DNA of 64,000 bases. It comes from Candidimonas sp. GTDB lineage: Bacteria > Pseudomonadota > Gammaproteobacteria > Burkholderiales > Burkholderiaceae_B. Under the pieces are notes generated by a model that saw only the letters and a list, made by a program, of their open reading frames with translations, did no database searches and had not been told where the DNA came from. The stretch spans positions 1,801 through 65,800 of the forward strand of contig SCRC01000006.1 in assembly GCA_004297945.1 (NCBI GenBank). Direction: 5' to 3'. Of this stretch, positions 21,403-59,455 are shown piece by piece. How positions within the stretch are numbered: position 1 is the first letter of the stretch; every line of letters begins with the position of its first letter. The position numbers and the translations under genes are program-made.

Positions 21403-22578
21403 TCACGCGGGGGGCAGTTTAAACACTTGCCGCAAATAGGCCAGGTAAGCGGCATCGTCGCACATGGTTTTTTCCGGTGCATCGGATACCTTCGCTACAG
21501 GTTGATCGTTGCAACGAACCATCTTCATGACAATCTGCAAGGGCTCGTGCCCCAGATCATTGGTCAGGTTGGTACCGATCCCGAACGACACCTTGCAACG
21601 CCCGGCAAAACGGCGCGCCAGCTCGATCGCTCGAGGAATAGTCAGGCTGTCGGAGAAAACCAGGGTCTTGGTGCGCGGATCGGCCCGATTCGCCGCATAG
21701 TGGGCCAGCAACCGTTCGCCCCATACGAAAGGATCGCCCGAATCGTGGCGCGCGCCATCGAAAAGCTTGCAAAAATACATATCAAAATCGCGCAAAAACG
21801 CATCCATGCCATAAACATCGGACAGCGCAATACCCAGATCGCCACGATACTCCTTAGCCCATATTTCCAGGGCAAAGACCTGCGAGTCGCGCAACCTGGG
21901 CCCCAGCGCCTGGCAGGCCTGCAGATACTCATGTCCCATCGTGCCCAGCGGCGTCACGCCGTGGAGCATCGCCAACCAGACATTGCTGGTACCGGCAAAA
22001 TTCGGACCCATCTGCCGTCTCATGGTGGTCATGACTTCTTCGTGCCACTTCTTGGAGAAGCGGCGACGGGTACCGTATTCGGCTACCCGGAACTCGGCCA
22101 TCGCCGGATCATCGGTCACCAAATGCATCTTGGACTGCAGGCGTTTGCGTCCTTCAACCCAGTCGGGCTCCCGGCATTCGTTACGAAAATACACCTCGTT
22201 GACAATCGCCAGAACAGGTATCTCGAACAATATCGTATGCAGCCACGGCCCTTTGACGCAGATATCAATCTCGCCAGGCACGGCGCTCTCGGTTACCACA
22301 ATGCATTTCTCGGGCAAATGGAATAGCCCAAGGAAATCCACAAAATCGCTCTTGATAAAACGCAACCCACGCAGATATTTTTGTTCTTCATCGGTAAAGC
22401 GAAGCTGGCACAAGCCATGTATTTCGGCGCGGATTTCATCCAGATAGATCGCAAGATTAATGCCTGGATTGCGGCATTTATAACGATACTCGACCTGAGC
22501 AGCCGGAAAGTGATGCAACACCACCTGCATCATTGAAAACTTGTAGAGATCGGTGTCGAGTAACGAGGTGATTATCAT
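21403..22578 (-). CDS. pncB: nicotinate phosphoribosyltransferase
   Basis: [37 protein letters not shown]. Confidence 0.96.
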
Positions 22579-22648
22579 CAGAAGGCAAGAATCGTTTTAG
22601 CTACCATAGCACACCACAACCCGCCCGTACCGCGCGACGGGTACGTTT

Positions 22649-23128
22649 TGTAGCGGCAGCCCTTGTGGGTGCCATTTTTGTTATTGGCACTCACAGGTTC
22701 TTAAACCGCGGCAACGCCGGCTCAGCCAGGCGCACTCACCTCGTCCGGTCCTGGCGTTGCCAGGACTGCCTGCGTCAAGCATCTGGATTGGGGCGGTCGC
22801 AAACTCACAACATGACCCGTCCACTGGACGGGTCAAAACTGTTGTTCAAACAGTGCTCCCTTGCCTCCCCAATCCAGATGCTTGACGCCGCGGACTCAAA
22901 TTCGCCGCCTGGCTGAGCCGGCGTTGCCGCTCGGGCTGGTTTGAATGACGGGGATTGGTCGGTTTGCGCGACCGCCCCAAAGCCAGCCTGCGCGCGGGAA
23001 GTTCTGGCGCAACCAGAACCGTGCACGTCAGAGCCCGGCCCGCCTTGAACGACCACGACGCGGGGAAAGAAGGTTTTATCCACGATGGCGTAATGGGGAA
23101 GATGGCAGTCACAAGGGCTGCCGCTACA
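22649..23128. mobile_element. REP-bracketed element with a long branched palindrome (non-autonomous element or structured RNA)
   Basis: inverted REPs 22649-22674 and 23103-23128; perfect 25-bp (22708-22732/22906-22930) and 22-bp (22772-22793/22867-22888) inverted repeats; mobility is inferred. Confidence 0.6.
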
Positions 23129-23272
23129 AAAACCAATGACCAGCAACCAGTGACGACAAACCCAAAGACCAGCCGCCCGGACTGGTCAATCCGCGCTGCA
23201 CTTCGCTAATTGGGTAAAATTGTTCTGTAGCGCAATACGTTCACATTGCAAAGATAGAAGCGAGAGCCTTGA

Positions 23273-23596
23273 ATGACCCATGTCGTCACCGAAAACTGTA
23301 TTAAATGCAAATTCACCGACTGCGTCGACGTGTGCCCGGTAGACTGCTTTCGCGAGGGTCCCAATTATTTGATGATAGACCCCGACGAATGCATAGACTG
23401 TGCCGTCTGCGTACCCGAGTGCCCGGCCAATGCCATCTTCGCCGAAGAAGACGTACCCCAGGATCAGTTGGATTTCATCCAGATGAACGCCGACCTGTCG
23501 CCCGGCCTGCCCACTATCAATCGTTCCAAAAAACCGCCCGAAGACGCCGACCAATGGAACGGCGTCGAAGGCAAATTGAAGTATCTCGAACGTTGA
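23273..23596 (+). CDS. fdxA: 7Fe ferredoxin FdxA
   Basis: [14 protein letters not shown] and [12 protein letters not shown]; 107 aa. Confidence 0.93.
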
Positions 23597-31293: not shown

Positions 31294-31678
31294 CGTAAGC
31301 CCCCCCTCGTGGGTGGCAATTCGACGCCTCATACTACATTAATCCCGGCTAGGGCATTTTCGGTTGACGTGCTTACGGAACGGAACGCGTTTCGAACGCT
31401 TTTTCTTGGGGCCGTTTAGGCGTTTTAGGTGGGGTAATTCTATTAACACGCCGCAGGGCGAGGGGTGGGTAGCGTCCGGTCCGTCCAGCGGTCGTGGCGC
31501 TCACGCGCCCCGACTGCCCGGGTCTGCCCAGATCCCATAGACGGCGTATTCAGATACCCAAACGTCCAGCCAAAAGATGGCCAAGAACCCGCGGTCGGCG
31601 CCAGTTATGGAAGCCGATAAAAGTGATGTCAACGCGTTGTTGTTGAACTGTTTGGCACCCACAAGGGGTGCCGCTACA
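31294..31678. mobile_element. second REP-bracketed structured intergenic element
   Basis: degenerate REP 31294-31317, intact inverted REP 31653-31678, nested imperfect inverted repeats between them. Confidence 0.45.
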
Positions 31679-39152: not shown

Positions 39153-39291
39153 TGTAGCGGCAGCCCTTGTGGCTGCCATGTTCGAGTTTCCACAAACCTA
39201 TGGCACCCACAAGGGGTGCCGCTACATGTGCAACAGGTACGTTTTTGTAGCGGCAGCCCTTGTGGCTGCCATTTTTTTGCAATGGCACCCC
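39153..39291. repeat. alternating REP cluster (B, A, B, partial A)
   Basis: 39153-39178, 39201-39226, 39246-39271, TGGCACCCC at 39283. Confidence 0.93.
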
Positions 39292-59282: not shown

Positions 59283-59455
59283 CGATGGCAGCCCTTGTGG
59301 CTGCCATCGGCGTTCTAAAAATCCCACGACGGTCATCGACGATCTCGTCAACATCCACGACGCGGGGAAAGAAGGTTTTAACCAACGTTTGGGACGATGC
59401 CGGTCTACCGTAACGCCACCGGCTGCGAATGCCACCCACAAGGGGTGGCGCTACA
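59283..59455. mobile_element. third REP-bracketed element
   Basis: REP B hairpin 59283-59309, inverted type D REP 59430-59455, internal 26-mer identical to 23053-23078. Confidence 0.55.

Follow-up and report, generated by a model that had tools for sequence, protein, structure and literature searches.

A structured non-coding interspersed repeat family of Alcaligenaceae, found as a divergent doublet between pncB and a ferredoxin gene

Introduction

Structured interspersed repeats are already known in bacteria and include REP/REPIN, ERIC, Correia and TwoAYGGAY sequences. The ERIC (IRU) repeats of enterobacteria and the Correia (CREE) repeats of Neisseria are intergenic, measure 100-160 bp, adopt an RNA fold on co-transcription and keep their stems by compensation. 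REPINs and BIMEs reportedly go with RAYT/TnpA-REP transposases (Bertels and Rainey 2011; Nunvar 2010; Ton-Hoang 2012). The BRE of Bordetella is a beta-proteobacterial intergenic repeat of ~90 bp that is tandem at some loci and was found partly via small-RNA mapping (PMC3110155). The SRM of the Ssn nuclease is a hairpin of 20-50 nt (HGTCWY...RNCYNB) flanking a small GIY-YIG gene (PMC11893778). The extended Pseudomonas form of TwoAYGGAY RNA (RF01731) reaches up to 202 copies in a genome, with medians of 11-23; some of its copies are truncated, 68% of its doublets are divergent and REP arrays lie at a fixed downstream position, the mechanism being left unexplained (bioRxiv 10.64898/2026.09.22.753630).

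Here we analyzed a 64,000-nt stretch of contig SCRC01000006.1, hereafter the window, in which the gap between pncB and a ferredoxin gene (fdxA) carries a large fold-back. A first-pass annotation had taken this gap for a single 480-bp unit bracketed by REPs and had proposed either a non-autonomous mobile element that targets or travels with REPs or an undescribed structured RNA. We find that the 480-bp gap is a divergent (head-to-head) doublet, made of a complete copy, A, and a 3'-half copy, B, of one repeat family that multiplies in Alcaligenaceae.

Results

The pncB-fdxA gap holds two family members, one of them truncated

Searching the 480-bp sequence against its own genome (2.99 Mb in 125 contigs, 83% complete) gave 154 matches, most of them to its ~35-nt REP ends, and split the sequence into three repeat families: the REP, module A (22706-22933) with eight full copies of 75-87% identity, and module B (~22947-23075) with several partial copies. 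The modules correspond to copies A and B (Table 1), which were also detected by an nhmmer profile and by R1, a covariance model that covers P2 to P6 of the family fold (159 positions, 53 pairs). Copy A reads leftwards to pncB and the 5'-less copy B rightwards to the ferredoxin gene, each with a REP ~40 nt downstream, which accounts for the inverted REPs bracketing the folded gap. Copy B spans the 3' arm of P5, P3', P2', P6, the 3' arm of P1 and the tail GGGGAAAGAAGG, so that what had been annotated as a second multibranched domain of the same element (22932-23037) is the opposite-strand 3' half of a copy of a second subfamily. The full subfamily-2 copy at the orthologous site of a sister species (G001) likewise has REPs downstream.

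The fold-back itself was borne out. Repeat finding recovered the inverted REPs, P1, P2 and the apical hairpin at the positions annotated, the side hairpin is visible in the sequence, and the 501-nt stretch at 22640-23140 folded as single-stranded DNA at -164.6 kcal/mol compared with -94.8 (sd 4.95) for its shuffles (z = -14.1), none of 100 shuffles being as stable. The two longest ORFs within the gap had no match in Pfam, in agreement with its annotation as non-coding. The truncated REP reported at 22685-22697 is present as sequence, but it probably does not testify to an insertion in a REP doublet: a similar, more diverged sequence lies at the same place in a sister copy (L035), and the REP-half-like stretch is therefore probably part of the 3' linker of this sub-subfamily.

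Elsewhere in the window, 36 kb off, the 30 nt at 59355-59384 match the tail at the 3' end of copy B (23053-23082) with 97% identity; they are probably all that is left of a further subfamily-2 copy beside a REP. A folded, REP-flanked stretch at 31294-31678 gave no match to R1 even at E up to 10 and, if related at all, lies outside the core of the family.

Table 1. Parts of the pncB-fdxA doublet and its flanking genes, in window coordinates.
Feature	Position	Strand	Description or basis
pncB (nicotinate phosphoribosyltransferase)	21403-22578	minus	start at 22578
REP downstream of copy A in the sense direction of A	22646-22678	plus (GTAG head)	inverted-repeat arm, 33 nt, 91% complementary to 23099-23131
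Linker from copy A to its REP	22679-22697	minus	includes REP-half-like TGGCACTCACAGG at 22685-22697
3' tail of copy A	22698-22707	minus	reads GGTTTAAGAAC, the conserved YWAAGAAC end motif
Copy A, complete element, subfamily 1	22706-22933	minus	covariance model R1, nhmmer (full-length profile match), repeat finding, folding; also has a junction helix between P1 and P2
Copy A, outer stem P1	22708-22732 / 22906-22930		perfect 25 bp
Copy A, side hairpin P6	22748-22766		GTCCTGGC-GTT-GCCAGGAC
Copy A, long stem P2	22772-22796 / 22864-22888		25 nt, 96%
Copy A, apical P3/P4/P5, hairpin	22813-22835		11 bp
R1 match on copy A	22741-22896	minus	155 bits, E 4e-25
Copy B, 3' half of a subfamily-2 element, 5' half missing	about 22947-23075	plus	nhmmer (positions 111-234 of the 236-position profile), R1, sister-species ortholog
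Copy B, P6	23002-23020		GTTCTGG-CGCAA-CCAGAAC
R1 match on copy B, partial	22920-23026	plus	E 0.025
REP downstream of copy B	23099-23131	minus (GTAG head)	inverted-repeat arm
Ferredoxin gene	23273-23596	plus	start at 23273

The family is spread through Alcaligenaceae

A profile search of the source genome found nine full-length copies and, away from contig ends, four partial ones, all of which kept the 3' end and had lost the 5' part. Running a loop pattern (GGGGAGGCAAGG, a gap of 5-6 nt, CTGTTYGAGC) on 185,579 species genomes yielded 39 loci, all but one or two of them in Alcaligenaceae, with Pusillimonas, Candidimonas, Pollutimonas, Paralcaligenes, Allopusillimonas, Parapusillimonas, Eoetvoesiella, Castellaniella and Pigmentiphaga as hosts; the exceptions were a chance match in a Verrucomicrobia bin and a locus, very similar to a Pollutimonas copy, in a 'Pseudomonas' bin. 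R1 matched 73 of 151 sampled Alcaligenaceae genomes and 30 of 51 genera, with 24, 31, 42, 57 and 25 matches in five complete genomes. Outside Alcaligenaceae, weaker matches were obtained in seven of 147 Burkholderiales genomes, belonging to four families. The distant relatives from these families (L133-L142) have the apical core and P6 in common and carry an extra conserved 3' hairpin, GGTTACTTT...GGCGAAGC...AAAGTGACT. They are followed by a different type of REP, GCCGGGCAGCCCCGGCA; the link between structured element and REP thus recurs with unrelated REP sequences.

Comparison with Rfam 15 gave for the window region a best E of 0.44 (18 bits, the cut-off being 36), and for 13 diverse copies and eight distant relatives only sub-threshold matches of long hairpins to microRNA precursors. 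The family had no match in plasmid and phage collections. All-vs-all comparison of the ORFs within 2.6 kb of ~50 copies revealed no recurrent neighbour protein, only translations of the element itself. A literature search did not find the family, and the invariant motif, searched as a text string, led to unrelated papers only. The copies are intergenic. Convergent neighbours are the commonest arrangement (17 of the 39 contexts that could be classified), and some copies lie between divergent genes, as in the window; a crude ORF survey showed no clear bias in the orientation of the element to neighbouring genes.

The proposal of a repeated, non-autonomous, structure-bearing element was thereby sustained, with many homologues, heavy covariation (below) and no Rfam or IS match. 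The first-pass annotation had named two outcomes that would speak against it, namely a match to a known Rfam family or IS end, or a single copy devoid of homologues, covariation and transcription, and we found neither.

One strand is selected for a conserved fold

All copies from the source genome, two congeners and a fourth genus fold to the same architecture, in which the outer stem P1 (~26 bp) leads through a short junction helix to the long stem P2 (~23 bp) and an apical P3-P4-P5, with a hairpin P6 on the 3' side, which makes six helices, P1 to P6, in ~230-260 nt. One defined strand, the window minus strand in the case of copy A, forms this conserved rod, P1-P2-P3-P4-P5, with P6 as its single side branch. 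The 39 loci recovered by the loop pattern fold alike although there is next to no sequence in common between their stems. Of the 70 pairs predicted in an alignment of 40 non-redundant copies, 64 showed compensatory double changes; 92% of the cells were paired, compared with 66% when partners were shuffled and 36-42% when the partner was slid by 1-3 columns, and the covariation score of 0.671 (vs 0.212) was reached by none of 500 shuffles.

The conserved sequence is in the internal loops. Their motifs, GGGGAGGCAAGG, CUGUUYGAGC/GAGUUY and CCGCCCC, are invariant or nearly so, AGGCAA being positioned between P2 and P3, CUGUUYGA/GAGUUY around P4 and the third being the CCGCCCC strand, and the terminal loops are variable (AGU, GGG, AAC, GCA and others). 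The P4 junction has GA on both strands and a UUYGA stretch, which could form tandem G-A pairs and a T-loop-like UUYGA, respectively. P1 is a long G+C-rich stem that is often followed by a short U run.

Read in the orientation of the window minus strand, the wobble cells of the alignment comprised 137 G:U and 45 A:C, with G:U in excess in 30 of the 40 sequences, indicating that one strand is selected for folding. The sense strand was also more stable than its complement in 39 of the 40 copies with RNA parameters and in 38 with DNA parameters. Together, the data show strong selection for a complex fold in a single-stranded form whose polarity is fixed.

REPs, element ends and doublets

In Paralcaligenes, the genus of the source genome, a REP is found by a strict pattern 38-66 nt downstream of 14 of 19 copies, its CTAC end always distal and the other orientation never seen; here the claim that the element travels with REPs held good. 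The linkers between element and REP are homologous within a sub-subfamily (C68 and C114; window and L035). GTAG-type REPs of ~35 nt, often in tandem stutters, fill the source genome, for example at 22646-22678 and 39200-39280 of the window, and the REP strand that reads GTAG is the poorly folding strand of the element. The GTAG REPs flanking the doublet are genuine but accessory to the ~250-nt element, and most copies in other genera have no REP downstream. Short tandem repeats are common in those genera; one copy (L034, genome G011) has tandem ~45-nt repeats, GTTACCCTGCCGCGCTGGCGCCCTTGCGCCTCGAA, where Paralcaligenes has REPs.

G065, a complete genome, has 17 near-identical copies, P1 included, which represent a recent burst. 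All of them stop sharply at the same 3' end, ...GCGYCTTAAGAAC, to which one or two further YTTAAGAAC units are sometimes added, whereas their 5' border is fuzzy and comes after degenerate ~25-nt repeats. The degenerate units (GCATGCAAAAAACG..GCC..ATAA; L103-L120) occur in variable number 60-150 nt upstream of each element. Among the 40 diverse copies, YWAAGAAC lies within 30 nt of P1 in 15, compared with a background of 2.5%, and the motif also marks the outer ends of the doublets of G069.

Pairs of R1 matches within 1.5 kb of each other numbered 24 in the five complete genomes, of which 23 were divergent, one was tandem and none was convergent. Three loci of G069 share an entire doublet at ~90% identity, its ~120-nt spacer included, so a doublet can be copied as a unit; the outer ends of these doublets, GGTTCTT...AAGAACC, adjoin A/T runs.

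Comparison of orthologous sites revealed turnover. At the pncB-fdxA site, sister species G001, whose loci are identical to contigs of Paralcaligenes ureilyticus DSM 24591 (L035 vs L072), has a full B and no A, and sister species G002 has neither. The doublet site of G069 is empty in G138, and orthologous sites in congeners are full, truncated, rearranged or empty. Thus both observations that the first-pass annotation had proposed to look for, multiple copies (nine full ones in the source genome) and sites that are empty or differently filled in sister species, were made. Filled and empty sites defined neither a target duplication nor exact ends, the intergenic regions of the compared species being too different; one truncated copy shows GCGCAG microhomology at its junction. 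With no mobilising enzyme found (below), mobility is deduced from copy number, site polymorphism and near-identical copies.

Orientation of the copies relative to replication

With the origin set at dnaA, the sense strand was on the lagging-strand side, the orientation of head-on genes, in 99 of the 150 copies of the five complete genomes (p = 1e-4), in the same direction in each genome, and the better-folding strand is accordingly mostly on the leading-strand template. The bias of 99 vs 51 points to some DNA-level, replication-linked process. In 1991, Trinh and Sinden reportedly observed more frequent deletion of hairpins whose more stable arm arrangement lay on the template of the lagging strand. 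We infer that the bias is best explained by preferential loss of copies with the more stable hairpin on the lagging-strand template; copies with the better-folding strand on the leading-strand template would survive longer, in line with the bias seen. Hairpin-stimulated deletion is also in keeping with the 5'-truncated copies, and loss of this kind makes the orientation bias reconcilable with an element selected as RNA. The active, folded strand of IS200/IS605 reportedly lies on the lagging-strand template (Ton-Hoang 2010). The family does not follow this rule, since 99 of its 150 copies have the better-folding strand on the other side.

Candidate mobilising systems

To determine which enzymes accompany the element, we examined their co-occurrence over the 151 genomes surveyed with R1. 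Y1_Tnp (RAYT/IS200; PF01797) was present in 27 genomes, 12 with the element and 15 without it; Y2_Tnp (IS91; PF04986), in 17 genomes, and strong ISL3 matches, in ~40, bore no relation to it either. RVT_1 (reverse transcriptase), present in 63 genomes, showed a weak positive association: 41 genomes had both element and RVT_1, 32 the element only, 22 RVT_1 only and 56 neither. Y1_Tnp, Y2_Tnp and strong ISL3 were all absent from the element-rich genomes G001, G041, G065, G069 and G138, and RVT_1 had no match in G004, G138 and G151, which are complete and element-rich. Among the families tested there was no element-encoded or consistently co-occurring transposase.

The link to RAYT made by the first-pass annotation had to be abandoned. 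Y1_Tnp was not found in the source genome (G000, 83% complete) or in G001 (99%), many REPs notwithstanding, nor in G041, G065, G069 and G138, and on this evidence we rejected a REPIN/RAYT system identified by its RAYT gene. A simple model of RAYT acting on the GTAG strand does not fit, as the better-folding strand of the element is opposite to the GTAG-reading strand of the REP.

Nearly every Alcaligenaceae genome contains a single weak DDE_Tnp_ISL3 match (E ~1e-8, profile positions ~80-200) in an ORF of ~400-430 aa, often with an in-frame TGA, which looks like a conserved non-transposase or recoded gene matching by chance. A simple sigma-70 scan, a weak test, found no promoter upstream of the copies examined. 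GTTC/CTTG-like flanks are present on the antisense strand of the element and presumably resemble the IS91 target.

Several other candidates were rejected. A transposase-derived MITE, of ISL3 for example, is not compatible with single copies that lack inverted termini and a clear target duplication, and strong ISL3 does not track the element. An RNA linked to a retron or another reverse transcriptase is contradicted by the lack of a recurrent neighbour gene and of RVT_1 in G004, G138 and G151; long terminal inverted repeats with a small and a long hairpin, as in a retron, fit only the poorly folding strand, again with no reverse transcriptase. Integron attC, Xer/dif and Tn3-type inverted repeats do not agree with a family whose conserved parts are internal loops rather than termini or core sites.

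Discussion

In organisation, the family has its closest parallel in TwoAYGGAY, without being a member. Both are multi-copy structured non-coding sequences with large copy-number differences between relatives (24-57 copies per genome in the complete relatives studied here), and both have truncated copies, mostly divergent doublets (68% in TwoAYGGAY and 23 of 24 in the present family), a fixed downstream position for the REPs, short tandem motifs and no known mobilising enzyme. Sequence and model similarity is nonetheless lacking: the window had no RF01731 match at E up to 10 and other copies had none at E up to 1. TwoAYGGAY consists of two hairpins on a common stem with AYGGAY loops, whereas the Alcaligenaceae element is a long rod with one side hairpin, conserved internal loops and variable terminal loops. 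Its short repeats are on the 3' side, with some genomes also having 5'-side repeats in units of ~25 nt, and the hosts are different, Pseudomonas for the one and Alcaligenaceae for the other.

With REPINs and BIMEs the element shares its intergenic, palindromic and non-autonomous nature, the inverted pair as the copied unit and, in the source genus, a true GTAG REP by each copy. However, each half of the pair measures ~250 nt with six helices, compared with ~25-35 nt for a REP, its helices covary while its internal loops are conserved, which is the reverse of a sequence-specific hairpin signal, and the element-richest genomes have no RAYT. ERIC and Correia are likewise structured intergenic repeats with compensating stem changes, but they are simple imperfect palindromes with conserved termini and, in Correia, a TA duplication, whereas the element is asymmetric and strand-specific and its single copies have no inverted ends. 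BRE is an intergenic repeat in Alcaligenaceae as well and is much shorter (~90 bp), being set apart from the element by length and description only. Neither the REP (GTAGCGGCA..) nor the element visibly fits the published SRM motif.

We consider the family, on balance, to be a previously unnamed ~230-260-nt non-coding interspersed repeat of Alcaligenaceae that is non-autonomous and structure-dependent, with RNA as the preferred form. It would behave as a selfish-like element, the folded single strand of which would be recognised by a trans-acting host or mobile factor. By analogy with TwoAYGGAY RNAs, we slightly prefer RNA, the second proposal of the first-pass annotation, to a single-stranded DNA transposition intermediate as the form under selection: the 3:1 wobble asymmetry, internal loops as invariant as in structured RNAs and the TwoAYGGAY parallel favor RNA, whereas the replication-linked orientation, the sharp 3' end motif and the failure to find a promoter favor DNA. 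An independent RNA gene is unproven, the scanned copies having no sigma-70-like promoter and no clear orientation bias relative to their neighbours. In a selfish repeat, moreover, covariation may arise because well-paired copies are the ones that get copied, and does not necessarily mean a host function. The alternative that the folded strand and REP are recognised at the replication fork by an HUH-type or other single-strand DNA enzyme encoded elsewhere, so that only well-folded copies are copied, was the main idea of the first-pass annotation; we take it seriously but regard it as less likely. It agrees with an orientation bias of 99 to 51 that is seen in all five complete genomes, with a REP whose position and orientation are fixed in the source genus and whose linker is copied along, with the negative promoter scan and with the retention of the 3' end by all four internal partial copies of the source genome; the sharp 3' end carries a short ...AAGAAC motif, sometimes tandem, whose antisense GTTC/CTTG resembles the IS91 target. 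Yet element-rich G001, G041, G065, G069 and G138 lack Y1_Tnp, Y2_Tnp and strong ISL3, the better-folding strand is mostly on the leading-strand template, contrary to the IS200/IS605 rule, and it is the poorly folding strand on which the REP reads GTAG.

Two further explanations were considered. That the copies are cis-acting parts of mRNA or chromosome, such as bidirectional terminators, 3'-end stabilisers like REP or ERIC, or BIME-like protein sites, which the host keeps and which are not mobile as such, appears improbable. Their intergenic position, commonest between convergent genes (17 of 39), and the G+C-rich P1 with its frequent U run would suit a terminator, and one element does replace the ordinary terminator hairpin of a sister genome, but a 250-nt multi-helix fold with invariant internal loops far exceeds the needs of termination, copies are found between divergent genes too, as in the window, orthologous sites differ in sister species and many copies are truncated. 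Bursts of near-identical copies, and doublets that were copied whole, moreover indicate spread rather than local origin. A bacterial counterpart of SINEs, in which the RNA is copied into DNA by a reverse transcriptase, seems to us very improbable indeed: selection of the sense strand for folding, partial copies that keep the 3' end, tiny tandem 3'-end fragments and the weak RVT_1 association (41/32/22/56) would all be in line with it, but genome size and shared ancestry confound that association, complete and element-rich G004, G138 and G151 have no RVT_1 match, the junction microhomology of the one truncated copy fits a simple deletion, and strictly head-to-head doublets are not expected from retro-copying.

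Structured interspersed repeats being known already, what is new here is the family itself, which departs from them by its size and complexity, near-obligate divergent pairing, replication-linked orientation and absence of an associated transposase. It stands out by six helices in ~250 nt, covariation support that is among the best, and presence in about half of the sampled Alcaligenaceae genomes while being absent from Rfam. The recurrence of head-to-head doublets, a trailing REP, truncated copies and no transposase in the unrelated TwoAYGGAY suggests a common mode of spreading. Whether the two stand for a general class of large structured RNAs, multiplying in bacterial chromosomes in head-to-head pairs with a REP in tow behind each member and no dedicated transposase, so that the fold or a universal host factor would drive both copying and the spread of REPs, is a conjecture that we put forward as rather doubtful. 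The covariance model is a handle for annotating hundreds of unexplained intergenic regions, and the family has cultivable hosts with recent copy bursts, for example Paralcaligenes ureilyticus DSM 24591, as well as a complete genome with 42 copies.
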